From IMG/VR virus record IMGVR_UViG_3300045988_110372, positions 1 to 64,000 of that record: a stretch of 64,000 nt of DNA; one strand, given 5' to 3'. Below are positions 3,287-63,755 of this stretch, in pieces. The notes beneath the pieces are model-generated. The model searched no databases. It had not been told where the DNA came from and worked only from the letters and a program-made list of their open reading frames with translations. Within the stretch, counting starts at the first letter, position 1. Each line of letters starts with the position of its first letter. This stretch comes from a virus. Both the position numbers and the translations under genes were made by a program.

Positions 3287-3304
3287 TTTTCAAAACAAAT
3301 AGCT

Positions 3305-3312: not shown

Positions 3313-3332
3313 TAAAAGTAAACTTTATTTTT

Positions 3333-9941: not shown

Positions 9942-10256
9942 TTAAATATACTTCATCCAGGAATATTTTTTTCTGTTACTCAGGTAAAACATGTCACTTT
10001 CATTGCTGTATGCCTCCTTCTCAAGTGATATGTTTTTGTAAGCATTTCCTTTGTAAAAAAGCCTTACAATCCATTCTACAATATACCACAAGTAGAAGAA
10101 TATATATAACATTTCTTTCATTTGTGCTGTATGTATTTCCTCGTGGTTAATTGTTTTAACGTCTATATTTGCTCTTTCTCTTACAAACAATACACCGAAT
10201 ATGTTTATTGCCTTAAACCCATTAAAAGGGATTATTTTATTTCTTATTATCTTCAT
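9942..10256 (-). CDS. small HExxH protein with a hydrophobic segment (104 aa)
   Basis: 'INHEEIHTAQ' contains HExxH. It is followed by 'MLYIFFYLWYIVEWIVRLF'. Confidence 0.45.
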   Translation of the reverse strand: MKIIRNKIIPFNGFKAINIFGVLFVRERANIDVKTINHEEIHTAQMKEMLYIFFYLWYIVEWIVRLFYKGNAYKNISLEKEAYSNESDMFYLSNRKKYSWMKYI

Positions 10257-10268
10257 ATATCTTACTAT

Positions 10269-10748
10269 TTACTCTGTTGCTTTATCTGTTATAGGCGAAT
10301 AACTTGCTACTGTAATTTCGGGTGTTTCTTCTGCTGATACGTTTTCAACTGCTTCTGTCGCCTTGTATAATACATTATTGTAGTTTGTCTTAAAATCTTT
10401 AGGTATTGACTGGTTAATAAAATTACTCCAGTTCGGGAACAGCTCCTTAACCTGCAATGCTTGTTCGTCCGTAAGATTCATAGTGTTTATACTTGATTCA
10501 AACAGCTTAGACATAACATCTACCTTTTCTTTTAATAATTCTATGCTTTCGCTCGAAGTGCTCTTAATAGAACGTATTCTTTCCGCTTCCGCTTCGTCTA
10601 TCTCTTGATATTGGTCTATTTCCTCCCATGAAGGAATTGTAATAGTGGTTAAGATAGGTTTATACTTATCTTCCACATCTGCAAGTGTAATGTAGTGCTG
10701 GTATGCAGCACTGATAACTTTTCCGTAGGATTGATTTTTAATATCCAT
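10269..10748 (-). CDS. hypothetical acidic protein downstream of the tail fibre (159 aa)
   Basis: Intact ORF. Its position suggests a tail-fibre accessory or assembly factor, but that is inference only. Confidence 0.55.
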   Translation of the reverse strand: MDIKNQSYGKVISAAYQHYITLADVEDKYKPILTTITIPSWEEIDQYQEIDEAEAERIRSIKSTSSESIELLKEKVDVMSKLFESSINTMNLTDEQALQVKELFPNWSNFINQSIPKDFKTNYNNVLYKATEAVENVSAEETPEITVASYSPITDKATE

Positions 10749-10757
10749 AATTATTTT

Positions 10758-11036
10758 TTATAAAGGTTGAACTTCTTGAACATCCGAAACCATTTCTTCA
10801 AAGGCTTTCTTTACAAACGCCTTATATCCGCTGTCGATGTACTTTCGGATGATTTCTATTTCACTCTCATTTGCTTCTACTTCTCCGTCTTTATAGATTC
10901 TCTGTGCAAGGTCTAATTCTCCCAAGTCAGAAGTTTCACGATAGATGTAATTCCCCAGTTCTTTCGAGATGTCACGAGGTTCCAAGTTACCTTCAATGTC
11001 CCTTGTCGGGACAGCTTTAAAATTAAGTTTTTTCAT
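10758..11036 (-). CDS. hypothetical protein (92 aa)
   Basis: Intact ORF immediately downstream of the giant tail gene. Confidence 0.55.
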   Translation of the reverse strand: MKKLNFKAVPTRDIEGNLEPRDISKELGNYIYRETSDLGELDLAQRIYKDGEVEANESEIEIIRKYIDSGYKAFVKKAFEEMVSDVQEVQPL

Positions 11037-11065
11037 AATTAAACAGTTTTTATAGAAAGTTTTAT

Positions 11066-14000
11066 TTAAAATGTTCCAAGTTTGGGTGATTCGTAATAAA
11101 CAGCTATAAATACTTTTGCATCCATAAGAGACCAGTTGTTATAGTTACTTGTCGTACTATATTCAAAGTATGTACTATAAATGTTTTCAATTACTGCAAC
11201 AGTTAATTTTCCATTAGATAAAGCTGTTATCTGAACATGATAAAGTGTATTCCCTATATTGTGTGTTACTCTATATAGACCTGTAGCTTTTTTTGTTACA
11301 GAAAATTCGATAGGAGTTCCTGAACTGTTAGGAATAGAAGCGCCAATAGATCTATTTAGATATCCCGAAGCTGTTATATATGCAGAGAATATACACTTAG
11401 CATAATGCACAACAGCACAAACATTACTACCCCCCTGAGTTCTTCCACAATACGTAAGCTGTATTCCTTTTGTGTTAACAGTAAGACCTGTACCATTTTC
11501 ATCATATATCATCAAGCCATTATACATCAATGTAGTTTTCAAAGTCTTATCTGTACTTTTAGTTTTACCTCTAAGGAACAAAGATTCAGGTGTTAATGTA
11601 CCTTGCAAAGTAGAACCATCCGAATAAACCGTTGTCAAGTCCATTTGCGCATAATATCGTGTCGTTCCAACAGTAGCCTTATTGGATATCAGTTTGAACA
11701 GTACATTACTTCCTTGCGTCATTTTCATGCCGTCCTTGTTGACAAGTGCGCTTACACCATCTGTATTTGAAGCATTAAGTGTTTTTACTACAAGAGCATC
11801 CGCTTCAATCAGACTTGTACGAATATGTCCTCCCTCAATGATTGTATTTCCGGCTGTTGCTGCGGAAACCATATCAGCATAGCTGGCATATCCTAACTTT
11901 TTAGCCATATCCTCTTTAGAGGAATTTATACTAGAAGTGACATCGCCTGAGTCAGCTTTATTATTGATTGTGCTCTGCAAACTACTATTAAGAGAACTGA
12001 ATGTAATCTTTCCTTGTAAAGATACATCTTTTCCGAAAATACTTATGGCGTTCTCTTTAACGGTAATTCCTGTCTTAATCTCTTCTGTTGTGGAATAATC
12101 GCTAGGTGCAGCACTCCACGGTGTTGACCTTTCTCCTTTTTCGACTTTGAGATTCCAAACACGGAAGTAACCTATTGGTTTATTGTCTTGTAACACAGAA
12201 GAAATGTAATAAAAAACCATTTCAATATTAGAATCTTTGATATTTGTATCACTACCACCTAAAGTTAAGGGAGGAGTAATAATTTTACCTGTACCATTAG
12301 ATTTTAAATTAGGAATACTATGAGCAGTCCAACCAAATTTATCGTCAAACTGAACCCTAAAATATGAGTTCTCCGTTGCGTTCCAAATAAGATTTCTTGC
12401 TTCGTATTCAAATGAAATGGTTACTATATCTCCTTTTTTTAAACCTGACGTTTTGTATAATGTATTTCTTTGATTTGCTACATTATTAAAAGTAGTCAAT
12501 CTTTTTTCGTTGCTTGTCAATAAAGCATAGTTTTGATTAATAGATTCATCTACTTTGTAGGCATAAACTTTTGTAAAGTAAGCTTCGCCTAAATTAGATG
12601 TCCCTTTAATACTGAAACATATACTTGCAGAAATAGAATCTGTTGGTATTGTTATATATCCTGACGAGGTATTCCATCCTTTTGTTTTGGATTCTATTGC
12701 ATCAAGCTCTATGTATTTGTATGTTTCATTTTTCAGTTTTATTCTAAGACCTACTGTTACATTATAATTACACTTCTCCGCATTAACTAAGGCAGTTACA
12801 TAATATTTTTCTCCTACATTAACATTAACGTATGACTTAGCATAAATCGTACCAACTGTACTTTTCATACAATAACTTGTAGGACAACTATTGTTGGCAG
12901 TTGCCGCACTAACTCGTGAACCTCCGGTATAAAGCAAGCTATAATTAGCATCATCGAAGCAACTGTCAGGAACAATGTTGGTTATCTTGCTCACACTTGT
13001 AACCTTAGAAGAAATACCAATCCAAATGTTATCAGGTTGTAACGCGACTTCTGCTTTGCTTACACGTGTAGTCAGCGCTGACAAATTGTTATTAGTCTGA
13101 TTCAGGTTGTTCTGAACGGTAGTTACTTCTGTCTTTTCGGCTTTTAGCAATAATTTTTCTGAGTGCTGTTCTATGACTGTCTGCATAGATTTTACAGTCG
13201 TAATCGTTGCGTACTTCTTGTCTGCATTTTGTCCGGCTGTTGTTATAGCATCATTCTTAGCCTTATTTGCCTTGTTGGTAGCATCTGTAGCAGCAGTAGA
13301 TATAGCGTCCTGCTTTGCCTTATTTGCCTTGGAAGTTGCGTCAGCAGAGGCAGTACTTATTGCTGAAGTCTTTGCATCATTCGCCTTTTTGGTTGCATCG
13401 CTCGCAGCAGTATTAATTATTTCCTGCTTAATAGTAGTAATTTCAGTAGAAGAAACCTTACTATTAATTTCACCTTCTAATACACTGAATTGTGCCGTAA
13501 CTTCTTTTTTATATTCAGTCAAAGCGTTTTCCGAATCTTCGGGAGCAGGTGACCAGTCTGTAGATTTAGTTCCTGTTTCAAGTTTCCAATTACCTTCAAC
13601 ATTACCTTTTATTAAGGTAAACTTTATATATTTTGTAGTTTCTAAAGTTTGGAAAGTCTTTGTTTTTGGAGATGTCCAAGTAATACCAGGCAAACAAATG
13701 CCTAACCATTTTTTGCTACTATCGTAACAATGAATAGAGCCTGAATGTCTATCTACCGATATACTTTTGTATAATGTTAGTGTATAATATCCATATTTTG
13801 CAGGGATAAAATCTTTTGAGCAGTAATTGTATCCATCTTTTACACTGTAATAATTTCCGTTTTCTGCTTGTATATAACCATCTACTATATTAGATATAGC
13901 AATTAGATTTCTACCTCCAATCTGAATATTATTAATAGCATTATTGGTGTATTCTTTTGAAGAAGTTACAGCAGCAGTAATACTGTTGTTGGTCTGCTCA

Positions 14001-17000
14001 AACTGTGAACTTACCGTTTTCTTATAAGAACTTAAATCGTTGGCTATACCTTGCGCATAATCACGTGCCGCATTTGAGATAGCGGTTAAAGCATTTGTTC
14101 TCTGTGTATAATACGTTGTCTGCTTTGTAGCAAAATCAGAAGGAATAGCAATTGTTTCAGGAGATGAAGCCGTAAGAGTTACCAACACAGCACGATAAGT
14201 CGTGTGTGCATTGTTGTAATTTGTAGGAGTACCTAGATTGTACTTACTATATCCGTTTGCAATCTGTGTCTTGTCTGCGTCAATTCTAGCTATTTCTTCT
14301 TTCAATGACTGCTTTTCTGTTGGAGAAATAGAACCGTCAGAAGCCCAACTATCTAATCGGCTCTTAGCTTCATCAGCATCACTTTGTGCATTGTTTGCTG
14401 CCGCTTTTGCGTTGGCAGCATCCTTTATTGCCTGATTAGCCTTTTCTTGTGCCGCATCTGCAGTTTGTTGTGCAGCATCTGCAAGGGATTTAGCCTTTGC
14501 TGATATAGCGTTCAATAAATCGGTGCGAGCATCGTAGTAATCCTTAAACTTGCTTCTGAATGCAGCTCCTGATATATTACTTGTTGTTGAAAGACTTGAA
14601 AGCAACGGTGTTATATAAGCACTTAGCGTATTATAAGCCGTATCGTAAGCAGTCCTGCTTACTCCGTACTTGTCAGCACTTGCATTGTTTTTAGGCTTTT
14701 CAGAAACAATAATATCCCATTCTTTTTTTGTTTCCTGCTTTTCCTGAGCAGTCAGCTTGTTGTCATTTGCTATATCAGACAATAAGGCGTTTGCAGTTGC
14801 CGCGCTTTGAACGGCGTTATTGGCTGTCTGCTGTGCACTATCAGCTGCTTGTTTAGCTGCATCTGCCGCAGCCTGAGCCTGATTTGCCTTAGTATCATCC
14901 GTATACTTAGAAGCAAGTTCCCAGTGCTCAATAGAAAACTGAGCATTTGCTTGTTTGGCAGTCTTGCATCGAAGCAAATCATTCTTGTAGCTTCCGTATG
15001 TAGCATTAACCCACAAATCTCCAATATCATACACCGAGGCATTAGACGGGGTAGTCACAAATACCCTTCTTTTTCCATCTGCCGTGTCCTGCGCTTTTTT
15101 AGCGTCAGCCAAAGCTTTTGTGATATCAGAATCGGTTATTACCTGCCATGTATACTTACTACCACTCACTTGAAAGCGATACGCTTTTCCATTACCATCA
15201 TAATACAAGTCGCCTAAATGTACGTTCTTGTCTTCGTTTGTAGTCCAATTTACAGCAGGCTCGTTACTTAATGTAGGAACTGGTTCATAAAACCATGTTT
15301 CAATAGCACCGTCTATTTGGTTTTTAACAGCTTCTAAATCCTTAGATAACTGATTTACAAATGAAATGTTTTCAGATAAATCAGATATAGCATCGTCTAC
15401 TTTTGTATTGACTTCCCCTACTGCGTTGTCGATATAGTCCTTTACGCTTTCTCCCGAACTGAATCTTATTGCATCGGCAATAATCATTACTTCCGAACGA
15501 GAAAATGAAACAAATTCTTTTCCGTCCAAAGAATAGGAATTGATACCACGATACAATTTAAAATACGGTGCATCATTGCCGTATGCAGACAAGATAATAG
15601 CTGCCTGACGTGTAGCATCAGACTTATTACCCAACTGTACGATATCATCGCCAGCCTTAGGTTCAGTAGAACCTGTATCGCAATCGGTTTTAGAAAGGTC
15701 TATATAGTTATCTCCTGTGCCTACAACAGCACGCCAATAGTAGGTATTAGTGACGTTCTCATTAACACCTTCCTTAACGTTAAAAGTCTGTGCCCTTGCC
15801 AAGTCACCGACAACAAATTCCTGCTCTATTGTTCTTTCTCCGTCCGTGTTCTCAAAATAGCAACGATAGAAATCTCCTTTATCCTCTATCTTAACGCAAG
15901 ACATAGATGCCGGAGTCAGAATAATCTGACCGCCAACATGCTTTATCTGTTGTATAAGCAACCGAATAAATGTGGCTACCTTTCTGACAAGCATACGGTC
16001 TACCTCCAGATAACTGTCACCGTTTTCGTCTTTCTTCAGACAGAATCCAGCCCCTAACGCACCAGTAGAGAAATTAGCTGATTCTATTCCGCTTCGTACA
16101 AGTATAGAAAGTAAATCTGCAACACCCTGTTCGTCAATATTGGCTCCTTTCAAGCCTTTTTTATAGTCGCCTATTGCCAACGCACCTCTAAGCAACAAAT
16201 TAAGCAGCTCTGCTGCTCCGTCCGCTGAAATCTTTGCACCTGACTTTTTGCTTAGATATGTACCTATTTCCAAACCGTCAATTAGCTTTACAAGGTCGTT
16301 GAATGTCTTTTCTCCCTTTGCTCTGTCGGCTACGTCCTTTCTAATAAAGTATTTGTTCCCTTGACTTAGTATGTCACCGCTTCCTATATTGGAAAGTACG
16401 TCCTGCTTAACACCGTCAAGCATTGTTTGTAATGAGTTCTGACCGATAGAAAGCGTATCTGCCAAGTTTACTTCTATTTCAGGCAATGGCGAATCTGAAC
16501 TCATTGTATATGTAAAGTTGTCTACATAGAAAGTATACTGTACCTTGTTGTATTCTACTATAAGCCGTGAATTTTCGTTCAACTGTTCAAGAATATCAGG
16601 ATGTTCTGCAAAGAATATACGGCTGAACTTTATGGAGAAGTTAAACTTCTCGCTGTTGTTTTCTGCCATATACTGAATGAGGTATTCTTTAAGGTCGTTT
16701 TCGGCTTTGTATATGTACGAATCGGGCATGTTTATGTTCAGTATGACAAATGTATCACCTGCTTTCGGTTTGAGGTTTTTTGATACATTAGGCATGACGT
16801 TTGTATAGGTTGTATCGTCTTTCTTTAGTGCAACCCATACTTCATAGTTTACCGTATCGTTCTGTCTGTCTTGCGGTGTTTCTTTCTGCAATCCGTCACG
16901 ACCGCATCTTACGTTTCCGTTCTCGTCACGTAACAGATTCCCGCTATCGTCTACCTGAACCAAATTCTTCTGTGTTTCATCTCCTGCTCCTATTTCAAAG

Positions 17001-18835
17001 GTACAAGAGCCGCACATACCGCTTGTAAACGAAAATTCCATATTTCCGCTTTCGGATGCTTGGTCGAATAGATTGAATCCGTAATCTCCGTTGAACTTTC
17101 TAAGCTTTCCGAAGAAGTAAGGATGAACGTATTCGTTTTTCTCGCCGTCAAACTCATCACTGTCATTTTCGTCATACGCAAATTCGGTGAACATGTCTAT
17201 TCTAAGTCCTTCCGCATTTGTCATTCCCTTGATAGACGGTTTAATATCTTCTGCGGTAACTTTGCCCTCTAAAGGATTGCCCTCTGAATATACGTTCTCA
17301 AATGTGTAGTATTCGTCTGAATCAGGCTTCTGATATGTGTCGTTCAGCGCATTGTAGAATCTTTGCTCGCCTTCCGTTTCTCTGTATATAGGCGGCATAA
17401 GTTCCGTACAATAAGGTATCTGCTTGCCTATATTCTGTGTAAAGTAGTCACCTACTACTAGTTTAGGGCTTCCGTTAAGACTTATACCTATTTCTTCAAG
17501 CTTGACTTCCTTTCCGTTCAAGTCCCAATATTCATAGTATGAACTAGGGAATGAAGCCTCAAAGTAGAATTTGGCACTTGTCACAGAATCACTTACAATG
17601 CCAGTGTAGGAAACCTTGAATACAACCTTGATTGTGTAGTCACCTGCTGCTACCTTATCTCCGTTGTTCAGGACTTTGTACTGTGTATCTTCTTCGCCAT
17701 ATCCCTTAATCGTAAATGACGGTGAACTTAAAGCACCCAAGCTGAAATTAATAGGCATAAAGGCGGTATTGACTGTAATGCTTGCATCATGCAGTATCGT
17801 TACGTTTACAAGGAATGTAGCCGTACTTTTATAAGCACTGCCTTCTTTTCTTACTGGTATTGATATTTCAGAATTTGCTTCGTAGTCGACAAATGTTGAC
17901 GAATTGTAAAACTCGTAGAAATTTATGACAACGACATTTTCGCCACTTTTCTTTGAGTAGATACATTTGTCAGTCGAACCTACTTTCTCGGCAAATTTGA
18001 CCGCATCTACAAGCGATAAATCGGATTGTGACAGACCTTGATTGCCTGAATATACATTTATTGAAACTTCACCCTTTGGTGTCTTGTTCGGATAGTAGTA
18101 AGGGATATTGTCACTGCTTCCTACACCAGTAATTCTGTTTACAAGGTTGTAGTTTGCGTTCTCTTTTGATACGGAAAGCAAAGCACCGTCAATGCCGTAC
18201 TTCATCACCGTAGGTATTGCGTTCTGCTCATATCCTACGTGTATGGTCTTTCCGACAAAATAGTAAGGCAGCTTATATACATTGTATATTTCCTGCAAAG
18301 CTTCAAGAATGTATTTGTCCTCGAAAGATACAAGCTGGCTTTCAGAAGTTATGCCCTCGTCAATTACGGCTGTATAGTCTATCTTTGAGTAGGACATGGA
18401 AGCATTAAGTCTAGCGACAAATTGTGTTATGTCACCCATGAACTGTACTTTCAGACTGTTGGAAACAACACCGTCAATCGTGCTGTCGCCCTGAACCGCA
18501 TCTATGAAATAGGTATGATTGAGGACTTCACGTTCGGATTTGAGAGTAACCGAATGTTCGTATCTTTCGTCCTCGTTGCTTTTAGACGATGAGGGTGTAT
18601 CTTTTACATAGAACTTCTGACCGTCAAATGAAGCATACACCTTGTTCGTCCAAAGCTTGTCGAGGCAAAGTCTGTGCTTTACGGTAGCCTCTATTGTGGG
18701 TACGCCGCCCATTCTTCCGTTTGCATCGTATTTGAAATCGCCTATGACAATCTGTTCCGTCTTGTTTGGGAACGGTGTATCCTCGATTCCGTCTACGAAT
18801 GTGTATAACTTTAAAATCTTCTCCATTGTGCACAT
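11066..18835 (-). CDS. giant tail fibre / host-recognition structural protein (2589 aa)
   Basis: A single uninterrupted 7.8-kb ORF.
- The N-terminal region resembles phage minor-structural / tail-tip proteins.
- The centre holds long Ala/Gln/Lys coiled coils such as 'AADAAKQAADSAQQTANNAVQ'.
- There are three 19-aa tandem repeats.
- Several beta-rich putative binding domains follow.
- A motif 'GDLYYDGNGKAYRF...WQ' is typical of phage fibre proteins.
An alternative ATG lies at 18826. Confidence 0.8.
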   Translation of the reverse strand: MCTMEKILKLYTFVDGIEDTPFPNKTEQIVIGDFKYDANGRMGGVPTIEATVKHRLCLDKLWTNKVYASFDGQKFYVKDTPSSSKSNEDERYEHSVTLKSEREVLNHTYFIDAVQGDSTIDGVVSNSLKVQFMGDITQFVARLNASMSYSKIDYTAVIDEGITSESQLVSFEDKYILEALQEIYNVYKLPYYFVGKTIHVGYEQNAIPTVMKYGIDGALLSVSKENANYNLVNRITGVGSSDNIPYYYPNKTPKGEVSINVYSGNQGLSQSDLSLVDAVKFAEKVGSTDKCIYSKKSGENVVVINFYEFYNSSTFVDYEANSEISIPVRKEGSAYKSTATFLVNVTILHDASITVNTAFMPINFSLGALSSPSFTIKGYGEEDTQYKVLNNGDKVAAGDYTIKVVFKVSYTGIVSDSVTSAKFYFEASFPSSYYEYWDLNGKEVKLEEIGISLNGSPKLVVGDYFTQNIGKQIPYCTELMPPIYRETEGEQRFYNALNDTYQKPDSDEYYTFENVYSEGNPLEGKVTAEDIKPSIKGMTNAEGLRIDMFTEFAYDENDSDEFDGEKNEYVHPYFFGKLRKFNGDYGFNLFDQASESGNMEFSFTSGMCGSCTFEIGAGDETQKNLVQVDDSGNLLRDENGNVRCGRDGLQKETPQDRQNDTVNYEVWVALKKDDTTYTNVMPNVSKNLKPKAGDTFVILNINMPDSYIYKAENDLKEYLIQYMAENNSEKFNFSIKFSRIFFAEHPDILEQLNENSRLIVEYNKVQYTFYVDNFTYTMSSDSPLPEIEVNLADTLSIGQNSLQTMLDGVKQDVLSNIGSGDILSQGNKYFIRKDVADRAKGEKTFNDLVKLIDGLEIGTYLSKKSGAKISADGAAELLNLLLRGALAIGDYKKGLKGANIDEQGVADLLSILVRSGIESANFSTGALGAGFCLKKDENGDSYLEVDRMLVRKVATFIRLLIQQIKHVGGQIILTPASMSCVKIEDKGDFYRCYFENTDGERTIEQEFVVGDLARAQTFNVKEGVNENVTNTYYWRAVVGTGDNYIDLSKTDCDTGSTEPKAGDDIVQLGNKSDATRQAAIILSAYGNDAPYFKLYRGINSYSLDGKEFVSFSRSEVMIIADAIRFSSGESVKDYIDNAVGEVNTKVDDAISDLSENISFVNQLSKDLEAVKNQIDGAIETWFYEPVPTLSNEPAVNWTTNEDKNVHLGDLYYDGNGKAYRFQVSGSKYTWQVITDSDITKALADAKKAQDTADGKRRVFVTTPSNASVYDIGDLWVNATYGSYKNDLLRCKTAKQANAQFSIEHWELASKYTDDTKANQAQAAADAAKQAADSAQQTANNAVQSAATANALLSDIANDNKLTAQEKQETKKEWDIIVSEKPKNNASADKYGVSRTAYDTAYNTLSAYITPLLSSLSTTSNISGAAFRSKFKDYYDARTDLLNAISAKAKSLADAAQQTADAAQEKANQAIKDAANAKAAANNAQSDADEAKSRLDSWASDGSISPTEKQSLKEEIARIDADKTQIANGYSKYNLGTPTNYNNAHTTYRAVLVTLTASSPETIAIPSDFATKQTTYYTQRTNALTAISNAARDYAQGIANDLSSYKKTVSSQFEQTNNSITAAVTSSKEYTNNAINNIQIGGRNLIAISNIVDGYIQAENGNYYSVKDGYNYCSKDFIPAKYGYYTLTLYKSISVDRHSGSIHCYDSSKKWLGICLPGITWTSPKTKTFQTLETTKYIKFTLIKGNVEGNWKLETGTKSTDWSPAPEDSENALTEYKKEVTAQFSVLEGEINSKVSSTEITTIKQEIINTAASDATKKANDAKTSAISTASADATSKANKAKQDAISTAATDATNKANKAKNDAITTAGQNADKKYATITTVKSMQTVIEQHSEKLLLKAEKTEVTTVQNNLNQTNNNLSALTTRVSKAEVALQPDNIWIGISSKVTSVSKITNIVPDSCFDDANYSLLYTGGSRVSAATANNSCPTSYCMKSTVGTIYAKSYVNVNVGEKYYVTALVNAEKCNYNVTVGLRIKLKNETYKYIELDAIESKTKGWNTSSGYITIPTDSISASICFSIKGTSNLGEAYFTKVYAYKVDESINQNYALLTSNEKRLTTFNNVANQRNTLYKTSGLKKGDIVTISFEYEARNLIWNATENSYFRVQFDDKFGWTAHSIPNLKSNGTGKIITPPLTLGGSDTNIKDSNIEMVFYYISSVLQDNKPIGYFRVWNLKVEKGERSTPWSAAPSDYSTTEEIKTGITVKENAISIFGKDVSLQGKITFSSLNSSLQSTINNKADSGDVTSSINSSKEDMAKKLGYASYADMVSAATAGNTIIEGGHIRTSLIEADALVVKTLNASNTDGVSALVNKDGMKMTQGSNVLFKLISNKATVGTTRYYAQMDLTTVYSDGSTLQGTLTPESLFLRGKTKSTDKTLKTTLMYNGLMIYDENGTGLTVNTKGIQLTYCGRTQGGSNVCAVVHYAKCIFSAYITASGYLNRSIGASIPNSSGTPIEFSVTKKATGLYRVTHNIGNTLYHVQITALSNGKLTVAVIENIYSTYFEYSTTSNYNNWSLMDAKVFIAVYYESPKLGTF
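13230..13405 (-). repeat. 3 x 57-nt in-frame tandem repeat inside the tail fibre gene
   Basis: The period of 57 nt is seen from 'GCCTTATTTGCCTTG' recurring at about 13260 and about 13317, with a diverged third copy at about 13374. It encodes 'ATKKANDAKTSAISTASAD / ATSKANKAKQDAISTAATD / ATNKANKAKNDAITTAGQN'. Confidence 0.7.
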
Positions 18836-36621: not shown

Positions 36622-39600
36622 ATGGCAGAAGATTTTGCAATAGGTAAAGAGTTGGAGATACCGAAATCGGTACTTGACAATATAGACAAGATAGACAAGA
36701 AGATTAACGACATATCTAAAGATTCTGAATTGATGGCACAGAAGTTTGGCTTGGCAATGACTAAAATGGCATCCAATTCCGACAGCTTGCTAAAGAAGTT
36801 GACCGAGATGCAGTCTAAGATAAATTCTATGGATATATCAAAGTTTGCACAAGGTGTTTCTAATGTAAGCAAAGGAACTGCCCAAATAGAACAATTCTCA
36901 AACGCAATATCAAAGGCTGCTGCTGCTATCAATAAATACAACAACAGTCAGACTAAACAGAAGTCTGTAACAAACGACAAGGAAATAGAACGGCTCAACA
37001 AGGAAATAGAGGCGTTAAAAAAGAAAACGGAGCAATTAGAAAAATATAGAAAAAAACAGAAGCAAGTAACCGAAGAACAAAGTAGTTCACGAGTTAATAC
37101 AAAAGCTATTGATGCCTACAACCGTGCTATGGCTAGTTCGGAAGCTTTGGTTACTCAACGTATCAACAAGATAGCGAAGCTTCGTCAGGCAGAAGAGATG
37201 CTTTTAAAGACAGGCAAAGATTATTCTGCAAACATATCTAAGATTCGTTCAGAGATAGAAAGACTGAATAAACTAAATCAAGGTCAGGTAGATTCTTACG
37301 GAAGGATAATAAGGTCACATCAGAATCTGATGAATACCTCCGACCAGTTAATGAGAAAGCTTGCTTTGATTTTCTCTGTTTCTCAGATACAAGGCTATCT
37401 TATGAACTTGGTTAAAGTTCGTGGAGAATTTGAATTGCAGAATACCGCACTTGCTTCTATCTTACAGAATAAAGATAAAGCCGACAAGTTGTTTGCGCAG
37501 ATTACAGAATTGGCGGTTAAGTCACCTTTTACATTGAAGGAATTGACTACTTATACAAAGTCTTTGTCTGCTTATCAGGTAGAATACGAAAAGTTGTACG
37601 ATACAACTAAAATGCTTGCTGATGTATCGGCAGGTCTTGGTATAGATATGCAACGATTGATTTTGGCTTTCGGACAGGTGAAAGCCGCGAATGTTTTGCG
37701 TGGAACTGAAGTAAGGCAATTTACAGAAGCAGGTCTTAACATTCTTGGTGAACTTGCTAAATACTATACTGAACTTGAAGGCAAAATGGTTACGATAGGA
37801 GAAGTACAAGACCGTGTTACCAAGAAAATGGTTGCTTTTGGAGATGTGGAAGAAGTGTTTAAGCGTGTAACATCAGCAGGAGGTATATTCTATAACATGC
37901 AGGAAAGACAAGCTGAAACTTTGGCGGGGCAAATGTCAAACTTGCAGGATAGTATAGATATTATGCTGAACGATATAGGTAAGGCAAATGATGGCATAAT
38001 TAAAAATATCGTAGCTTCTGTAAGAACTATTGTAGAAAATTGGGAAATATTTGCCAATCTTATAAATGCAGCTTCGGTAGGGTTTGTTTTATACACAGCT
38101 AAAGTTTTACTTGCCGCTAAAGCCAACAATGCCTTTGCTGCAAGCTCTATTGCTGCTACTGCCGCACAAAGTGGTCTTGTTGGTGCTACCGCTAAAACGA
38201 TTAAAGTATTTAACTCTTTGATTGCTTTTGCTAAAGCCAATCCGTTTGTAATGATTGCTTCCGCAGTAGCATATTTAGGTTATGAACTATACGACCATGT
38301 AAAGAAAGTTGAGGAAAATAAAAAGGCTTATGATGTCTTAGTAAACAGTGTAAAAGAAACAGGAAAAAGCTTCAACTCTATCACTTCTAAAATAGAAGAA
38401 CAAAATGAAAAAATAAGAAAATCCTTAGATTCACTAGAATCCATAAAGAAAGGAACTAAGGAATATTACGAAGTAGAAAGTGAAGCCAACAAAGAAAGAG
38501 AGAAGTTAAATACACTTCTTAATGATTTAAAAAACAAATTCCCCGAAGTATATAGTGGAATTGTAAAGCAAAAGGACGGAACGGTAGATTTGACTTCTGC
38601 CCAAAAAATATTAAATGAGGAACTTGAAAAAACAACATATCTGTCATATCTGTCAAGACAAACCGAAACTTTTTGGAATGAAGGTCTTGTAGAAAACATA
38701 AAAGATGCCTCAAAGGAGCAGCAAAACTATAAGTCAAGCATGGATAACGTTTCTAGCGGATTTATTCAAATGAGTGCAAGAATAAAGGAATATTTTGCTA
38801 CAAATAAATACGCTTCTAAAGAATTGCAGAAACAGCTTGACGATATTGCAAAAAGCTCCATGTCTACATACGATAAGATACAGAAGATGTATTTTGTAGT
38901 AAGTAATACAACAGGTGTAAATATTGGAGATTTGAGAGATATAATATACGATTATCAAGAAGAAGCTAGAAAAGCCGAAAAAGCTAACGATGCTCTCAAT
39001 GATTCAAATGGTAAACTTTCTGAAAGTATAAAGCAAATAGCGGAAGGATATAAGTCTGCTTTTGACATTTCAACAGAAGAAGGCAGAAAATCTGCGCAAA
39101 AAGCCACAGAAGAGTTTATAAGGTTGCTTGATATTAAAGACGAAGCTGTTAGAAAGTTTGTTCAAACCCAATTTGAAGTAAATATAGGGGTAAAGCTTAA
39201 CATTGAAGGAAAGATTGAAAAGCAATTCTCTGATATGGAGAAAAGAGTAAATGATTACCTTAAATCCAAAGAGTTTTCTTTAATCCCTAAAGTTGAAGCA
39301 GGAGAGGGCACTTCTAAATACTTTAATGACCTTAAAAATGAATATAAGGACTTAGTAGAAGAAGCAGAAAAGATAAAAAGGGCTAATCAGGAATTGTACC
39401 CTGACAAGACAAATGCACAAAGACTTGATGAGTTGAATAAAAAGATGGTTCAAGTCAAAAACACCCTTAAAGACTGGGGTGAACTTGAAGAAAAGGGAAC
39501 TAAGACTTCAAAGCAAAATCCTGAATTGAAACGTCTTAAAGACCAAATAGCATTAATCAAGAAAGCAGGAGATGAATACAAGAAGCTAAGACAATATTAC

Positions 39601-41820
39601 AGCGAAGAAGATGCTATCAAGCAGGTACGTGAATCGTTTGCTGATGCTTTCAGTAATTTAGACCTTGACATTGCTATGTCATTTGATACGGAAGGAGTTG
39701 TAAAAGGTATAGAAAACCTTACCTACAAAACAATACAAGGCGGTAAGGAAGCCGTAGATGAAGCTTTAGCACCTCTGAAATCCGAACAGAATATCAAGGT
39801 TAAGGCAGAAGGTCTTGAAGAAATACAAAGACAGATTGATGATATTTTCTCTAACTATGAGTTTAACCTCGAACTTCAATCAGCAGGAATAGATGCAGGT
39901 GCTTTCAAGAATATGCTTCAAGATTTAGGAGTAACTGACGAAGAGATATCTATGGTTGGTCTTGACGCTACTACTTTTGAAGAAGTTGCTGAAAAGGTAA
40001 GAAAGGTTATATCTGACTTACAGAAACAAGGCGGTGACGACCAAATAAAGCAAGCTAGAAAATTCCAAGAGCAGCTTACGGCTTTGGAAGTAAAGGAAGC
40101 TAGAAAGAGATTCGATGAACTTGCTAAACTACGTGAGAAGTATCAGACCAATCAAGAAAAGATGCAGACAGTTCAGACCAATCTGTTTGCCGACAAGGAC
40201 GCTTTAGCTTTATTGGAAGAACAGAAAGCTATGGGCAAAGCCGTAAACAAGGAGCAGGAAGAACTGTTGAAATTAAGAATACAAGCTGGCGAGGATGCTC
40301 TTTTACAGTTAAAGAGTGAAGCGTTGCAGCTTACGGACTTTTGGCAAAGACTATTCGGTGACTTGAATGATATAAGCGTAAATTCATTGCTTGAACTGTC
40401 TAGGATAACCGATGAAATTATTGCTAACAGAACAGAGATAAAAGGCGACAAAGGTGATATAAAAGGATATTCTTCGTCTTATACGGATAAGGACGGAATA
40501 ACCAAGCAGGTTACACTTACAAAACAGCAATATCAGCAGTTACTGAAACAGAATAATCAGGTTGCCGATGAAATACAGAAGAAGAATCCTTTCCGTGCGT
40601 TGTATGAAGCCATACTGAAAGGCAAGCAGGAAGGAGAAACACAGCTTGACTATTATACTAGACTTGAAAGTATTATAAACAGTGTATCTGATGCAGCGTT
40701 TGGAGCAGCCGAAAACCTTATGGATATATTCGGTGCAAGTGACGAAGCAAAAGAAATGCTTAACAATATCAAAGGTATAGCTGACGGTGCTGTAAGTTTG
40801 GGAATGGGTGTAGGACGTATAGCGTCAGGAGATATTATAGGCGGTGGCTTGCAAGCTATAAGCGGTGTGGCAAGTGTAGTCAAGTCAATAATAAATATCC
40901 ACGACAACAAACGAGAAAAAGAGATTCAGCGTCAAATAGATTTGATAGAAGAATTGCAGCGTTCTTATGAGAAGTTGCAGGGAGCTATCGAAGGTGCATA
41001 TTCTATCAACACATACAAGGCTTCATACGAACAGTCTGTTGCTAATTTGGAAGCACAGAATGAGGCTTTGAGAAATGCAATAGCAGCGGAACAAGACAAG
41101 AAGAAACCTGACGATGATAGAATAAAGGAATGGCAGAATCAGATACAAGACAATCTTGACGCTATAAAGGAATTGGAAGAACAGTTTATAGCTGACTTAG
41201 GAGGATTCGGAAGTGATGCAAATGTCAAGTCTGCCGCACAAGAATTTGCTGATGCTTGGCTTGAAGCCTATATGGAAACTGGTGACGGTCTTGATGCTCT
41301 TAGCGACAAATGGGATGAGTATATTCAGAATGTAGTAGCCAAACAGTTGATGCTGAAAGGCACTGAAAAGTATTTGAAACCTGTCATGGATATGCTTGAC
41401 GGTATGTTGCAGGATTCAGTATTTACACCGAAAGAAGCGGAAGAGATACAAAATAAGATAGACCAAGTTATACCTCAGTTAAATGAGTTTTGGAAAGCGA
41501 TAGCCGGAAGCTTTGATTTAGGTGCTGCGGACGAGGGTGATACGATGAGTGGATTGTCTAAATCTATAAGCGGTATCACAGAAGAAACCGCTGATGCTTT
41601 GGCTGCAATAACTGAAAGTATAAGATATTTTAGTGCGGACACAAACGTCAAGGTTAGCGGAATATATAACTTCTTGTTAAATCCACCAGTAGAAAGTCCT
41701 TTGTTTGCCGAAATGAAAATGCAGACTGAACATTTGAGATTGATGTATAATCTTTGGAACTCAATGTCTAAATCAAAGGCAGGTGTTCAAGGACGTGTAT
41801 TGAAAGTGGAAGTAGTGTAA
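36622..41820 (+). CDS. tail tape measure protein (1732 aa)
   Basis: Very long coiled-coil protein with a central hydrophobic stretch 'AASVGFVLYTAKVLLAAKANNAFAASSIAATAAQSG...'. It has a TP901-type core-like 'ILAFGQVKAANVLRGTEVRQFTEAGLNILGELAKYY'. Confidence 0.9.
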   Translation: MAEDFAIGKELEIPKSVLDNIDKIDKKINDISKDSELMAQKFGLAMTKMASNSDSLLKKLTEMQSKINSMDISKFAQGVSNVSKGTAQIEQFSNAISKAAAAINKYNNSQTKQKSVTNDKEIERLNKEIEALKKKTEQLEKYRKKQKQVTEEQSSSRVNTKAIDAYNRAMASSEALVTQRINKIAKLRQAEEMLLKTGKDYSANISKIRSEIERLNKLNQGQVDSYGRIIRSHQNLMNTSDQLMRKLALIFSVSQIQGYLMNLVKVRGEFELQNTALASILQNKDKADKLFAQITELAVKSPFTLKELTTYTKSLSAYQVEYEKLYDTTKMLADVSAGLGIDMQRLILAFGQVKAANVLRGTEVRQFTEAGLNILGELAKYYTELEGKMVTIGEVQDRVTKKMVAFGDVEEVFKRVTSAGGIFYNMQERQAETLAGQMSNLQDSIDIMLNDIGKANDGIIKNIVASVRTIVENWEIFANLINAASVGFVLYTAKVLLAAKANNAFAASSIAATAAQSGLVGATAKTIKVFNSLIAFAKANPFVMIASAVAYLGYELYDHVKKVEENKKAYDVLVNSVKETGKSFNSITSKIEEQNEKIRKSLDSLESIKKGTKEYYEVESEANKEREKLNTLLNDLKNKFPEVYSGIVKQKDGTVDLTSAQKILNEELEKTTYLSYLSRQTETFWNEGLVENIKDASKEQQNYKSSMDNVSSGFIQMSARIKEYFATNKYASKELQKQLDDIAKSSMSTYDKIQKMYFVVSNTTGVNIGDLRDIIYDYQEEARKAEKANDALNDSNGKLSESIKQIAEGYKSAFDISTEEGRKSAQKATEEFIRLLDIKDEAVRKFVQTQFEVNIGVKLNIEGKIEKQFSDMEKRVNDYLKSKEFSLIPKVEAGEGTSKYFNDLKNEYKDLVEEAEKIKRANQELYPDKTNAQRLDELNKKMVQVKNTLKDWGELEEKGTKTSKQNPELKRLKDQIALIKKAGDEYKKLRQYYSEEDAIKQVRESFADAFSNLDLDIAMSFDTEGVVKGIENLTYKTIQGGKEAVDEALAPLKSEQNIKVKAEGLEEIQRQIDDIFSNYEFNLELQSAGIDAGAFKNMLQDLGVTDEEISMVGLDATTFEEVAEKVRKVISDLQKQGGDDQIKQARKFQEQLTALEVKEARKRFDELAKLREKYQTNQEKMQTVQTNLFADKDALALLEEQKAMGKAVNKEQEELLKLRIQAGEDALLQLKSEALQLTDFWQRLFGDLNDISVNSLLELSRITDEIIANRTEIKGDKGDIKGYSSSYTDKDGITKQVTLTKQQYQQLLKQNNQVADEIQKKNPFRALYEAILKGKQEGETQLDYYTRLESIINSVSDAAFGAAENLMDIFGASDEAKEMLNNIKGIADGAVSLGMGVGRIASGDIIGGGLQAISGVASVVKSIINIHDNKREKEIQRQIDLIEELQRSYEKLQGAIEGAYSINTYKASYEQSVANLEAQNEALRNAIAAEQDKKKPDDDRIKEWQNQIQDNLDAIKELEEQFIADLGGFGSDANVKSAAQEFADAWLEAYMETGDGLDALSDKWDEYIQNVVAKQLMLKGTEKYLKPVMDMLDGMLQDSVFTPKEAEEIQNKIDQVIPQLNEFWKAIAGSFDLGAADEGDTMSGLSKSISGITEETADALAAITESIRYFSADTNVKVSGIYNFLLNPPVESPLFAEMKMQTEHLRLMYNLWNSMSKSKAGVQGRVLKVEVV

Positions 41821-53201: not shown

Positions 53202-53972
53202 TTATCGTTTGTATCTGAATATATAGTCATTCACATTATTTACTTTACCTCTACAATTTAAGCCGATGGAGGTTGCGCATAAGTTTAACTTTCTTCCAGC
53301 GTCTGCTATTGATTCATAATCACATACATAATCACCATTTAAAAGAAAGCACGAAACAGGCTGTTTATTAAAATCTTGGTATTCTTCAAATTTGTCATTT
53401 TTGTTTGCTTCATTCCTCCAAATAAATTTATTCGCTGATTTCGCTAACCCACACAAACAATTACTTATAGAGCTTCTATTTGTGTTAGTTGCTCGATAAG
53501 CCTCTAATACCGAGTTAAATCCCGCAATAAATTCACCGTTTAAAGAATATTGGTAAACTTTTGTTGAATTGCAATACTTCCTGCTTCCATATTTTAAATT
53601 ATAAGAATACGTGCAATGCTCTAAATTTTCAGCTCTGTTGTCTGATTTTATTTCATTTTTATGATTTACGCATGGATGATTGTTAGGATTTGGTATAAAT
53701 ACGTCAGCGACACACTGATGTGATGAAATTCTTATCTTTTCTCCTTTTAAATTAGAGATACGACAAGATAGATACCCCTGCCAATTCGGGAATTGTTTAA
53801 TAATTCTTTCTCTGTGCTTTCGCTTAGTATTACCAAACTTTCTGATAGAAGCAAGAGCTTTTATCCTACCCATATTGCTTACCATATATAGGTTATCGCA
53901 ATCAGGTATAAACCTCCATTCCTCATTAGGAAGGTTTTCTAAACTTAGATTTTTGTAAATTTCTGTTTCCAT
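53202..53972 (-). CDS. free-standing HNH homing endonuclease (NUMOD4 / HNH_3 type)
   Basis: It has 'EEWRFIPDCDNLYMVSNMGRI', 'HQCVADVF...VNHKNEIKSDNRAENLEHC' and IENR-like C-terminal repeats. Confidence 0.8.
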   Translation of the reverse strand: METEIYKNLSLENLPNEEWRFIPDCDNLYMVSNMGRIKALASIRKFGNTKRKHRERIIKQFPNWQGYLSCRISNLKGEKIRISSHQCVADVFIPNPNNHPCVNHKNEIKSDNRAENLEHCTYSYNLKYGSRKYCNSTKVYQYSLNGEFIAGFNSVLEAYRATNTNRSSISNCLCGLAKSANKFIWRNEANKNDKFEEYQDFNKQPVSCFLLNGDYVCDYESIADAGRKLNLCATSIGLNCRGKVNNVNDYIFRYKR

Positions 53973-60840: not shown

Positions 60841-62787
60841 TCAATCTTTTACTTCTACATTAAATTCACCACCATTGTTCCACATTTTGATAGTCTGATT
60901 TTCTATCAATGGGTAATTATCTTCATCTACCGTATGAGATTCGTCAATGAATATCGGCAGGTTAAGACCATAGAACTTCTGAAAACCTAACGACAAATCA
61001 AGTCCGCATCTAACTTTGCTTGCTGCATTTGTAACTTGTGCCGACACACCTTCTGAATCGAGGATTCTACAATCGGGTACAATATCTCCGCTTTTGTTTA
61101 CCGAAGTCATTACAACAGAAATATAGTCAAACATTCCGTTCACCTTATCAGAAACAAGCTGTGCTTTCTCTTGCTCGTACTTTATAGCCTTGTTTAGCAT
61201 ACCTTCAAGTCTTGCAAGTTCGATGCTGCTCTCTCTAAGTTCGTTCTGTTTATGCTTGATAACCTCAATCTGCTTGTCGTATGTATCTTTTACACCGAGT
61301 TTCTTAGAAAGTTCCTCAACATCATTCATAAGGTCTTTCTTCATGTTGATTAAAGCCGCATTATCCTGCGTTGGTACGACCGTCATATTTGCCTTCTTAT
61401 TTGAGATTTTAGCCACTTTCTCCTTGCCTTCGATAGTTTCCTTATACGGAATAAAATTCTTTCTCAAATCGGCTAATCTGCTTTCAAGTTCAGTCTTGTC
61501 AAGCAAAGGCTTTTCGGTATATCCTTTTTCGATAACAGTCATTGCTTCGTCAATCTCTTTCTTAACCTCGGCAATTTTTTCATTGTTTGCTCTACCTTCT
61601 GCTACAATAGCATTGTGTTTGGCTTCTTTTCTTTCAAAGAACTGCTTCTTGGCTTCTTCAAGTTTATCTTCCGGCAAAATCTGTCCGCAATAGGCACATT
61701 TATCATCTGTGAATACCATTGCTTTTACTTTCTCATTCTGTTTTAGCAATGTGTTGCGATACTCGTTCAGCTTTTCAAGTTTAGATGTTGCCGATTTAAG
61801 CGTTTTCTCTGCGTTTTCGATAGATTGCTTGGATAATTCATTTTCTTTCAAAATCTGCGCATTTCTAATATAAATTTCAGCCATTTCTGCCTTAATCTTG
61901 TTAGCTTCTTCAATCGGTTTCAGGTTGTACTTGCTTTCTGCTTCTGCCAACTCTCTTTCAAGTTCAGCAATCTCTTTCAACTCTGCATTTCTCTTGTCGA
62001 TATACTGCTGAACGCTTTCGCTGCTTCCTGTAATCTGTGCGTCAATGTCGGCAATCTGTTTCTTCGTTTCTTCGATTTCTTTCTTAACATCATCTAACCC
62101 TTGAATGTCAGGTAAACTTGTCTGCAATGTCTGAATAGTGATAGGCAGACTTTCTACGCTTGACTTTACGGATTTTATTTTTGACTTGTAAGAGCTTTTG
62201 ACCTCATCAATAGGATATTTCCGTAAGTCGTTCAGAATGTCGGTATAGTCGCCTTTCATTTCAGATTCATCAATATTGCCTACAAGTGATTCAAAGTGCT
62301 TGCGCATGTCTTTCCAATCAAGTGATTCGTAATGTCTGATATTCAGCATAAGTTTCAGCTTGTCGAAAGGCGCAAATGTTTCTTCGATAAATGACTTATA
62401 ATCTCCTGCGCTTCTCTCAATTCCATCAATGTAAAACTTGTAATCATCAGTAGCTTTCTTTTCGTATTCCTCACGCCCTTTCTTTCTCGTCCAACCTTGC
62501 TTTGCAGTCTTTTTCAACGTATATTCTACTCCGTCAATATCCAACACGGCTTCGGTAGATGCAAGTTTTGAGTTTTCATAAGTAAGCGGCAAAGTATCAT
62601 CGAACAGTTTGTAGTTTATTCTGTCTTGTTCGTCTGAGCCAGTAAGCAACCAAAGCCAAGCGTTGAAGCAACTTGATTTTCCACTCTTGTTTTTCCCTTT
62701 GATTTCTGTATTGTGACCGAAGTTTATAACTTTGTTCTGTCCTCGCCAATCCTGCAAGGTGAGTTTTTTAAGAGTTATTGTTTTCAT
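60841..62787 (-). CDS. SMC/Rad50(SbcC)-like ATPase with coiled coil and CxxC hook
   Basis: It has an N-terminal P-loop 'GKNKSGKSSCFNAWLWLL' and a long coiled coil. A central 'CAYCGQ' is zinc-hook-like. The C-terminal Walker B is 'LPIFIDES'. Confidence 0.7.
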   Translation of the reverse strand: MKTITLKKLTLQDWRGQNKVINFGHNTEIKGKNKSGKSSCFNAWLWLLTGSDEQDRINYKLFDDTLPLTYENSKLASTEAVLDIDGVEYTLKKTAKQGWTRKKGREEYEKKATDDYKFYIDGIERSAGDYKSFIEETFAPFDKLKLMLNIRHYESLDWKDMRKHFESLVGNIDESEMKGDYTDILNDLRKYPIDEVKSSYKSKIKSVKSSVESLPITIQTLQTSLPDIQGLDDVKKEIEETKKQIADIDAQITGSSESVQQYIDKRNAELKEIAELERELAEAESKYNLKPIEEANKIKAEMAEIYIRNAQILKENELSKQSIENAEKTLKSATSKLEKLNEYRNTLLKQNEKVKAMVFTDDKCAYCGQILPEDKLEEAKKQFFERKEAKHNAIVAEGRANNEKIAEVKKEIDEAMTVIEKGYTEKPLLDKTELESRLADLRKNFIPYKETIEGKEKVAKISNKKANMTVVPTQDNAALINMKKDLMNDVEELSKKLGVKDTYDKQIEVIKHKQNELRESSIELARLEGMLNKAIKYEQEKAQLVSDKVNGMFDYISVVMTSVNKSGDIVPDCRILDSEGVSAQVTNAASKVRCGLDLSLGFQKFYGLNLPIFIDESHTVDEDNYPLIENQTIKMWNNGGEFNVEVKD

Positions 62788-62789
62788 AA

Positions 62790-63755
62790 TTATTTCATTT
62801 CACTGATTAATGCATTTCCACAAGTAATTCTATCACTATCTTCTTCTTTTGAAGGAACAAATACGATGACATCCCATCCTTCTTCTAGCAGCGGCTGTTC
62901 GAATTTGCGGTACACATCATAATCAGCATATCCAGTTACTTCAAAACCATTTTCAATAGCTGAATTTGTTTCATGAATTGGGGTAATTTTTACAATAAAC
63001 TTATTCTTGTCAAATAACTCAGAGAGTTTCTTTGCATCAAGAATAGTCTGTGCAGTTACAGGAAAATTCAAAGTATATTTTCTACCTTTGGGCATTGGTA
63101 AATCTTCAGCTAATTCTGATATTTCAGTTAAAGATAAACTTTTTCTATCAAATAACTGATTTCTTTGTTCGTCACCAGTTGAATTGATAGAGAACTGAAG
63201 TCCTGCTTCACCATTGTAAAAATCATTTTTTATTTCGCACCAAGTAAGAATATACTGTTTCAATTTCTTATTTGCTTTTGGTAGCATAGTAGATACTACT
63301 GGATGAACAGTCTTTGCTTTTAATCCACAAGTCTTTACAAGTTCTTTCAGCATCATAGAAAAAGCCAGCACATTTTCATTCCAAGTTGGTTCTCCCATTC
63401 TTGCAAAGTGAACATTAAATCGTTCAGTTTCTCTTACATCTTCATTTTTGATAATCATTTTAATTTGATAAGCAAGTTCATTTACTGAAACATTACCAAA
63501 GAAGCCAAATTTAGGAACATCACAGAATTTACATTTCATCGGGCAACCTTTCTGTGTAGAGATAGTAGCAACCCATTTATTACGCAAATCTACTTCTGTG
63601 TTAGCTACTCCGTTGATTTCTTTTGTCAGACCGAGAAAGTCAGCCTTGATGTTATTTTCTTTTCCGTAATCACCTACTGTAAGAAATTCAAGTTTCTTTT
63701 CGGTATCTACATAAATCTTTCCTGTGTGAGTTTTAATTGTTTTCATATTATACAT
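62790..63755 (-). CDS. radical SAM enzyme, RlmN/Cfr-like
   Basis: 'ISTQKGCPMKCKFCDVPKFGFFGNVSVNELAYQI' has the CxxxCxxC cluster in an RlmN-like context. It also has 'ARMGEPTWN', 'KITPIHET' and a C-terminal 'DRITCGNAL', comparable to RlmN 'DIDAACGQL'. Confidence 0.7.
   Translation of the reverse strand: MYNMKTIKTHTGKIYVDTEKKLEFLTVGDYGKENNIKADFLGLTKEINGVANTEVDLRNKWVATISTQKGCPMKCKFCDVPKFGFFGNVSVNELAYQIKMIIKNEDVRETERFNVHFARMGEPTWNENVLAFSMMLKELVKTCGLKAKTVHPVVSTMLPKANKKLKQYILTWCEIKNDFYNGEAGLQFSINSTGDEQRNQLFDRKSLSLTEISELAEDLPMPKGRKYTLNFPVTAQTILDAKKLSELFDKNKFIVKITPIHETNSAIENGFEVTGYADYDVYRKFEQPLLEEGWDVIVFVPSKEEDSDRITCGNALISEMK

Follow-up and report, generated by a model that had tools for sequence, protein, structure and literature searches.

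The stretch of DNA analyzed here, referred to below as the window, comprises positions 1 to 64,000 (64,000 nucleotides, nt) of the IMG/VR virus record IMGVR_UViG_3300045988_110372, and the gene under study lies on its minus strand at 62790..63755, where an open reading frame (ORF) of 321 amino acids (aa) encodes a radical S-adenosylmethionine (SAM) protein that belongs to PHROG family 24834 and to a sister family of RlmN and Cfr. Its translation contains the radical SAM [4Fe-4S] cluster motif C71-x3-C75-x2-C78 (63522..63545, minus strand) and, near the C-terminus, Cys312 within 'RITCGNA', an instance of a conserved T-C-G-N/Q motif (codon at 62820..62822, minus strand). In alignments to RlmN, Cys312 occupies the column of the methyl-carrying Cys355, and Thr64 (codon at 63564..63566, minus strand) occupies the column of the resolving Cys118. 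The gene lies upstream of, and on the same strand as, an SMC/SbcC-like ATPase gene (60841..62787, minus strand; 648 aa; PHROG 77, E 1e-40), from which it is separated by 2 nt. Codon differences from a sibling phage number 82 synonymous and 22 non-synonymous in the radical SAM gene, which indicates purifying selection, and both ORFs are real genes rather than chance ORFs. An earlier, sequence-only reading of this region had reported both ORFs, their 2-nt spacing, and a set of short motifs, all of which were found in the ORF list and translations, and it had placed the pair in a recombination and replication setting, which is supported by window ORFs with RecT, SSB, HNH, metal-dependent hydrolase, DnaB_C, and DnaA_C assignments.

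The radical SAM protein is a stand-alone enzyme, intact and under selection, of a very large uncharacterized family derived from the "class A methyl synthase" fold of RlmN and Cfr. Its match to PHROG 24834, a family annotated as function unknown, has an E-value of 4.6e-109 and aligns residues 5-318 with profile positions 5-323 of 336. Significant matches were obtained for 7,240 of the 8,000 candidates scored, grouping at 50% identity yields 891 clusters, and two scans confirmed 485 and 501 viral contigs, respectively. Relatives are labeled "23S rRNA (adenine2503-C2)-methyltransferase" by JGI. Among cultured phages, a close homologue is present only in Bacteroides phage Versailles (ON453897; 54.5% identity), where the product is annotated merely as a radical SAM protein, and further homologues in Pectobacterium phage Arno18 and Salmonella phage Arash are surrounded only by hypothetical proteins. 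A megablast search of the region against the INPHARED phages gave no match, and a literature search covering phage RlmN and radical SAM proteins, radical SAM proteins with isochorismatase, and the NARP papers found nothing describing the family. P0070, P0107, and ∼70 other close relatives have gene calls of 386-437 aa, whose N-terminal extension (65-110 aa) matches nothing in Pfam and may reflect either a genuine fusion or an upstream ORF joined on by the gene caller.

Single-sequence searches with the 321-aa protein reach only its cluster-proximal third. The Pfam Radical_SAM model matches under threshold at 24 bits, the NCBIfam RlmN model (TIGR00048; cut-off, 290 bits) scores 43 bits and matches only residues 54-168, the Cfr models NF000424 and TIGR04432 (cut-offs, 530 and 550 bits) score 31.8 and 29.2 bits, and phmmer against the PDB returns RlmN entries at E ∼4e-5 over residues 62-159. 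The RlmN model is matched by 34 of 37 family members, every score being far under the cut-off. A profile built from 37 family sequences spans the whole core, matching RlmN and Cfr entries in the PDB with E-values of 1e-19 to 9e-21, and alignment of this profile to Escherichia coli RlmN with hhalign gives a probability of 98.8%, an E-value of 7.6e-17, and 258 aligned columns. The register of that alignment equates residues 18-321 of the window protein with RlmN 100-368, so that only 17 residues precede it; it places the invariant Glu23 on RlmN Glu105, Thr64 on Cys118, and Cys312 on Cys355, and phmmer and the profile search of the PDB give the same register for the latter two positions. An AlphaFold model built on the family alignment (predicted local distance difference test score, pLDDT, 92.9; predicted template modeling score, pTM, 0.92) points in the same direction, since the top seven matches in a Foldseek search of the PDB are all RlmN-family structures, namely entries of E. 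coli RlmN and the S. thermophilus homologue 6fz6 (E 5e-10 to 1e-7; template modeling score, TM, 0.58-0.67). Among viral structures in BFVD, the best matches are a phage protein named "COG0820 Predicted Fe-S-cluster redox enzyme" and the radical SAM protein B3FJU2 of Pseudomonas phage 201phi2-1 (TM 0.65-0.79); both are structurally close but without functional annotation, and they name the family while explaining nothing about it. RlmN and Cfr are thus the nearest characterized relatives over the whole catalytic core.

The two cysteines that define RlmN chemistry have separate fates in the family. In a census of ∼300 relatives aligned to the family hidden Markov model (close matches, 50%-identity representatives, and genome loci, with totals varying by column), the cluster cysteines are kept almost throughout (C71 in 292/293, C75 in 298/302, and C78 in 302/302), and Cys312 is kept in 264/268. 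At position 64, cysteine occurs in none of 295 relatives, which carry T (250), I (14), N (10), M (6), or other residues, and a cysteine anywhere within the 16 preceding residues is found in only 10 of 291, at scattered positions. No other non-cluster cysteine is conserved family-wide in this census; Cys173 (207/291) and Cys143 (121/289) are conserved in the phage clade only, and Cys173, which homology places on an outer helix, is an unlikely substitute for Cys118. The core motifs GEP, SxxS, and KxxP are conserved. In addition, the family has no counterpart of RlmN residues 1-99, the hhalign match beginning at RlmN residue 100. The N-terminal domain of RlmN is its RNA-binding part. The isoelectric point ranges from 5 to 9 across the family, so that net charge is uninformative on nucleic-acid binding. 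As the census shows, the loss of Cys118 is a family trait and not a local loss. The sequence-only reading had assigned the C-terminal cysteine to the Cys355 position and had noted a threonine seven residues before the cluster in the Cys118 column, and every alignment agrees; the absence of the cysteine, which it had noted for this phage gene, is borne out and is common to ∼295 relatives.

RlmN and Cfr are class A methyl synthases that form S-adenosylhomocysteine and 5'-deoxyadenosine in each turnover; RlmN makes m2A2503 in 23S rRNA and m2A37 in tRNA, and Cfr makes m8A2503 in 23S rRNA and confers PhLOPSA resistance. The radical SAM protein has neither the resolving cysteine nor the N-terminal domain that define these enzymes and scores below their curated cut-offs, so that it represents a sister family of RlmN/Cfr and not a member and probably catalyzes a different reaction. 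The earlier assignment to RlmN/Cfr therefore stands for the core, where hhalign, profile, and Foldseek comparisons all identify these enzymes as the nearest characterized relatives, but not for membership. The likeness to RlmN consists of the same core fold, motif order, and CxxxCxxC cluster, with the family segments S-T-x-x-P, LQFSINS, and KITP corresponding to STSG, LAISLHA, and KINLIP in RlmN, an aligned GEPxxN, and a C-terminal loop "CG[NQ]" whose cysteine aligns with Cys355. The differences include a 22-residue insertion ahead of the first core strand and the nature of the genomic partners, which are hydrolases, flavoproteins, a transporter component, and NAD (nicotinamide adenine dinucleotide) genes rather than housekeeping translation genes. 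The homology to Cfr is as distant as that to RlmN (profile against 9p0p, E 4.5e-19). Like Cfr, the family is mobile, being carried on phages and, in some bacterial chromosomes, lying next to resolvases; unlike Cfr, it has no resolving cysteine, and there is no evidence of a resistance phenotype.

The genomic partners were compared across 79 genome loci and 160 viral loci, the latter in two sets of 80. Redox proteins are one recurrent kind. A gene for an FMN_red protein stands directly downstream of the radical SAM gene in the four nearest sibling phages, whose contigs are 80-84 kb long, and also in 9 of another 80 viral loci; the sibling protein has 197 aa, was identified by Pfam PF03358 (E 1.8e-20), carries a compact cysteine motif, and resembles an iron-sulfur flavoprotein. 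Bacterial operons contain a thioredoxin-reductase-like flavoprotein together with the radical SAM gene, and one Pyr_redox_2-radical SAM fusion was also found. These thioredoxin-reductase-like partners lack a CxxC motif, which identifies them as ferredoxin-NADP-reductase-like electron donors rather than disulfide reductases, and the idea that such a partner re-reduces a disulfide in place of Cys118 was rejected for the same reason. Hydrolases are another: in all three distant cellular members examined, an isochorismatase-like hydrolase, a flavoprotein, and the radical SAM gene follow one another in a coupled operon with overlapping stop and start codons, and two representative clusters consist of radical SAM-isochorismatase fusions. 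With PADLOC, neither the radical SAM protein nor its hydrolase and FMN_red partners matched a known defense system.

The bacterial proteins nearest to the phage clade (41-45% identity) combine, in one fused chain, an energy-coupling factor (ECF) S-component, the radical SAM domain, and a methylthioadenosine/S-adenosylhomocysteine (MTA/SAH) nucleosidase. The S-component of two of these fusions, P0127 and P0132, matches Pfam QueT at 37-40 bits against a gathering score of 33.7, and a QueT-type domain is fused in four bacterial relatives; against NCBIfam, the S-component domains gave no match, and a homologue search for them gave one fragment only. The fused nucleosidase is an ordinary MTA/SAH nucleosidase (PRK05584, E 2e-66), the type of enzyme that clears 5'-deoxyadenosine and SAH.

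A further kind of association involves NAD genes. In metagenome-assembled genomes (MAGs) of gut Alphaproteobacteria, the radical SAM gene is found in a cluster of NAPRTase, nicotinamidase, radical SAM, NadE, DUF5662, and NrtR, in which the hydrolase is clearly a nicotinamidase, and two further lineages carry the same gene kinds at only 32-51% identity. Other arrangements comprise NadE, NMNAT, and radical SAM (L066), radical SAM, NMNAT, and Nudix (L075), and radical SAM, an archaeal-type NMNAT, and a second small radical SAM protein (L099); the large viral contigs L185 and L203 also show the association. The radical SAM clades involved share 30-76% mutual identity. Phages are known to rebuild NAD+ with genes of these kinds through the NARP pathways (bioRxiv 10.1101/2024.02.11.579819; PMC13464706), and the present loci resemble NARP1, NARP2, and NARP3 in that several lineages embed the radical SAM gene among Nampt/NAPRT-like, NMNAT, Nudix, NadE, and nicotinamidase genes. 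They differ in that no described NARP includes a radical SAM enzyme, the association holds in a minority of loci, and the window itself is without an NAD gene.

Several side observations belong to these loci. The second small radical SAM protein (234 aa) lies beside NMNAT/NAD genes and the RlmN-like radical SAM gene in two unrelated loci (L099, 6481-7185; L185, 5080-5658), and its sole PDB sequence match is a weak one to 8wm2 (E 0.003). In locus L028, the NAD-salvage/radical SAM cluster lies between a gene for a 1061-aa helicase-type protein (186-3371) and a group of GNAT, nucleotidyltransferase-like, and kinase-like ORFs (9647-11549), all assigned by eye, an arrangement that suggests an accessory, defense, or resistance island. 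In five gut Alphaproteobacteria MAG chromosomes (L010, L017, L018, L022, and L024), the radical SAM gene is located between genes for prephenate dehydratase and a serine recombinase (resolvase) and has the look of a small mobile insertion, and in the sibling phages a resolvase gene lies ∼4 kb upstream of it. A protein of ∼110 aa beginning "KIYISSPITG...", which by eye is of the nucleoside 2-deoxyribosyltransferase-like or DUF4406 type, is encoded ∼48 nt downstream in ∼20 viral loci of one large gut-phage lineage (L230-L258) and is also present in L049, L052, L062, and L073. Immediate neighbors are otherwise heterogeneous, which fits a mobile accessory gene.

Taken together, these partners favor a repurposed class A radical SAM enzyme that probably acts on a small molecule and is possibly linked to NAD, a reading that leads the field of candidates while remaining tentative, with a real prospect of being wrong. 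The transporter and MTA/SAH nucleosidase fusions, the coupled amidohydrolase/reductase operons, and a phage-encoded SAM synthetase point to a small-molecule, multi-turnover reaction and not to the modification of a few rRNA sites, and because the gene repeatedly occurs within clusters for NAD salvage, the foremost candidate is a pyridine- or NAD-related substrate. In the proposed mechanism, the enzyme would be reduced by a flavoprotein (the FMN_red protein in the sibling phages, the ferredoxin-NADP-reductase-like protein in the bacterial relatives, and host donors in this phage) and would then cleave SAM to give a 5'-deoxyadenosyl radical, after which Cys312 would either carry a methyl group or relay a hydrogen atom. 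Cysteines act as hydrogen-atom relays in some radical SAM lyases and epimerases. The loss of Cys118 fits either role, provided that no enzyme-RNA adduct needs resolving. The substrate would be a small molecule rather than rRNA or tRNA, most likely a pyridine or NAD-related salvage substrate, and the phage copy would be a mobile auxiliary gene of the early region that works apart from the SMC-like ATPase and plausibly contributes to counter-defense or cofactor supply. In a narrower version, which is unlikely to be correct, the family would be a novel type of radical SAM enzyme that has retained the RlmN methyl-cysteine (or thiyl) machinery and acts on a pyridine- or NAD-related molecule, providing a missing salvage step in the NAD operons of reduced-genome bacteria and, in phages, a further means of restoring NAD+ or another cofactor against NAD-depleting immunity.

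A number of points weigh against a small-molecule, NAD-linked enzyme. RlmN and Cfr, the sole characterized homologues, modify adenines in RNA, and the preserved counterpart of Cys355 argues for RlmN-type chemistry. NAD genes stand beside the radical SAM gene in only ∼12 of the 79 genome loci and ∼5 of the 160 viral loci (L183 being the same contig as L065), and none was found among the 58 ORFs of the window. The isochorismatase-like partner of the cellular members gives mixed PDB matches and has no metal-ligand motif, so that it is not clearly a nicotinamidase. The commonest immediate neighbors in viruses are DNA methyltransferases of three families, which are directly adjacent in ∼20 of 80 viral loci. 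Adjacency in phages is weak evidence in any case, since accessory genes of phages are grouped in islands.

The first alternative is that the protein is a genuine RNA C-methyl synthase acting on adenines of host or phage rRNA or tRNA, the adduct being resolved without Cys118 by another base or an external thiol. The identity of the only characterized homologues, the conservation of the Cys355 equivalent together with GEP, SxxS, and KxxP, and the JGI annotation of relatives all speak for it, as do the gene call P0173 and one prophage lineage, in which a gene for Thg1-like tRNA repair lies upstream. In P0173, which is probably a chimeric or frameshifted call, an AAA_33 kinase and a Metallophos phosphatase, polynucleotide-kinase-phosphatase-like in combination, are joined to the C-terminal third of the radical SAM protein. 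RlmN and Cfr mutants lacking C118 stall as covalent adducts. This stalling, which the titles of PDB entries 5hr6 and 4pl1 reflect, counts against an RNA methyl synthase in a family where the Cys118 equivalent is absent throughout and no other non-cluster cysteine is conserved. The lack of any counterpart of RlmN residues 1-99 and the scores far under the curated cut-offs add to the case, and membrane transporter fusions and amidohydrolase operons are ill-suited to an RNA substrate. An RNA-modifying function is accordingly considered doubtful. The rRNA or tRNA modification and antibiotic-resistance roles suggested in the sequence-only reading are kept among the candidates but have ceased to be the best supported.

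DNA modification is a less probable alternative, in which the enzyme would belong to an anti-restriction island and act on the phage genome or on nucleotide precursors, for instance through an undescribed sequence-specific methylation of adenine carbon. The DNA methyltransferases adjacent in viral loci are consistent with it, as are the immediate neighbors in genome loci (DNA_methylase five times and N6_N4_Mtase twice) and a SAM synthetase gene, MetK-like by eye ('FRGHPDKVADQISDA...'), that precedes the radical SAM gene by ∼680 nt in 6 of 80 viral loci (among L103-L182). The location of the gene agrees as well, since in this phage and in Bacteroides phage Versailles it belongs to the module for replication and recombination. 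However, DNA methylases are common in phage early regions, which makes their adjacency weak evidence, and the bacterial relatives occur in hydrolase-reductase operons or as transporter fusions. A search for domains found none that binds DNA, and the generally slow turnover of radical SAM enzymes argues against bulk modification of DNA.

Queuine salvage is less probable still and would make the protein a non-homologous analogue of queuine lyase, or another 7-deazaguanine salvage enzyme, with import in bacteria through the fused QueT-like component. The transporter domains of P0127 and P0132 do pass the QueT gathering score, and the transporter/radical SAM/nucleosidase layout mimics the C. difficile queK-qrtT-queL operon (PMC11477304; PMC11130926), in which the QueL gene adjoins ECF S-component and nucleosidase genes (PMC11477304). 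QueL is likewise a radical SAM enzyme, acts on a salvage substrate taken up by import, and has a gene layout mirrored by the bacterial three-domain fusions; streptococci are reported to lack any known QueL (PMC12632869). Homology between QueL and the family is limited to the generic radical SAM core: QueL structure 6P78 (230 aa) ranks 15 in the Foldseek search (E 9e-4, TM 0.41, 15% identity) and was not returned by the phmmer or profile searches of the PDB, and homology to QueL, which the QueT/radical SAM/nucleosidase fusions had suggested, was rejected, leaving a weak functional analogy. No preQ1 or other riboswitch was found upstream of three fused genes (L086, L094, and L095), the nucleosidase is an ordinary MTA/SAH enzyme, and neither TGT, QueK, nor DpdA was found among the 58 ORFs of the window or the 25 commonest neighbor families.

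The remaining alternative concerns the adjacent ATPase gene. The 648-aa product has coiled-coil matches to SMC and Rad50 models and the architecture of the Rad50/SbcC type, with a split head carrying Walker A (GKNKSGKS, residues 31-38, 62674-62697, minus strand) and Walker B (IFIDE, residues 612-616, 60940-60954, minus strand), a long central coiled coil, and a CxxC motif in the middle (CAYC, residues 364-367, 61687-61698, minus strand). A sequence search of the PDB gave no match for it, and no Mre11/SbcD-type partner was found, the downstream ORFs (151 and 127 aa) having no Pfam or PHROG match and no Metallophos domain being present among the 58 window ORFs. An ATPase homologue near the radical SAM gene is absent from 78 of 79 genome loci (the exception, L038, has an SMC-like ORF with 24% identity), from all 160 viral loci, and from Bacteroides phage Versailles. 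In the sibling phages, the FMN_red gene lies between the two genes (10957-11554 in L001; 10962-11554 in L002, where it is split into ORFs of 103 and 93 aa), and alignment with L001 shows that this 598-bp gene is cleanly missing from the window at the junction (62788..62800, minus strand). The accessory reductase, missing here and split in L002, thus appears to be dispensable or decaying in this phage lineage. At the nucleotide level, the siblings are 89% identical to this phage on the radical SAM side but 96-97% identical on the ATPase/replication side, and the jump falls exactly at the 62787/62800 boundary, which marks a mosaic recombination breakpoint. A single recombination or DNA-processing module formed by the radical SAM enzyme and the ATPase, to which the shared strand, the 2-nt gap, and the lack of any terminator-like site found between 59500 and 64000 might have pointed, is effectively refuted by these observations. 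The ATPase is a neighbor and not a conserved partner, and the radical SAM gene is independent of it; the coupling proposed in the sequence-only reading is absent from 238 of 239 related loci, and the pair is thus not conserved together in relatives.

Elsewhere in the window, a single tRNA gene, tRNA-Cys (GCA), is located at 8555-8629, and two very long ORFs encode proteins of 2589 aa (minus strand, 11066-18835) and 1732 aa (plus strand, 36622-41820). The window also encodes dCMP deaminase, dUTPase, and LAGLIDADG and HNH endonuclease domains, and a gene for an HNH/NUMOD-type homing endonuclease (53202-53972) is found directly upstream of the recombination pair formed by RecT and the metal-dependent hydrolase.

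The family is among the most abundant unannotated enzyme families in gut phages, and some pipelines misannotate it as RlmN; in particular, the gene should not be taken as a Cfr-like resistance determinant without evidence. Its "half" RlmN site, in which the Cys355 equivalent is kept and the resolving cysteine and N-terminal domain are lost, points to a class A methyl-synthase scaffold that has been repurposed, and solving the reaction would extend radical SAM chemistry. Depending on the substrate, the family would represent a new cofactor-salvage step, a new phage counter-defense, or a new nucleic-acid mark, and should the NAD-salvage reading prove true, it would be the first case of a radical SAM enzyme taking part in NAD salvage and in counter-defense by phages.

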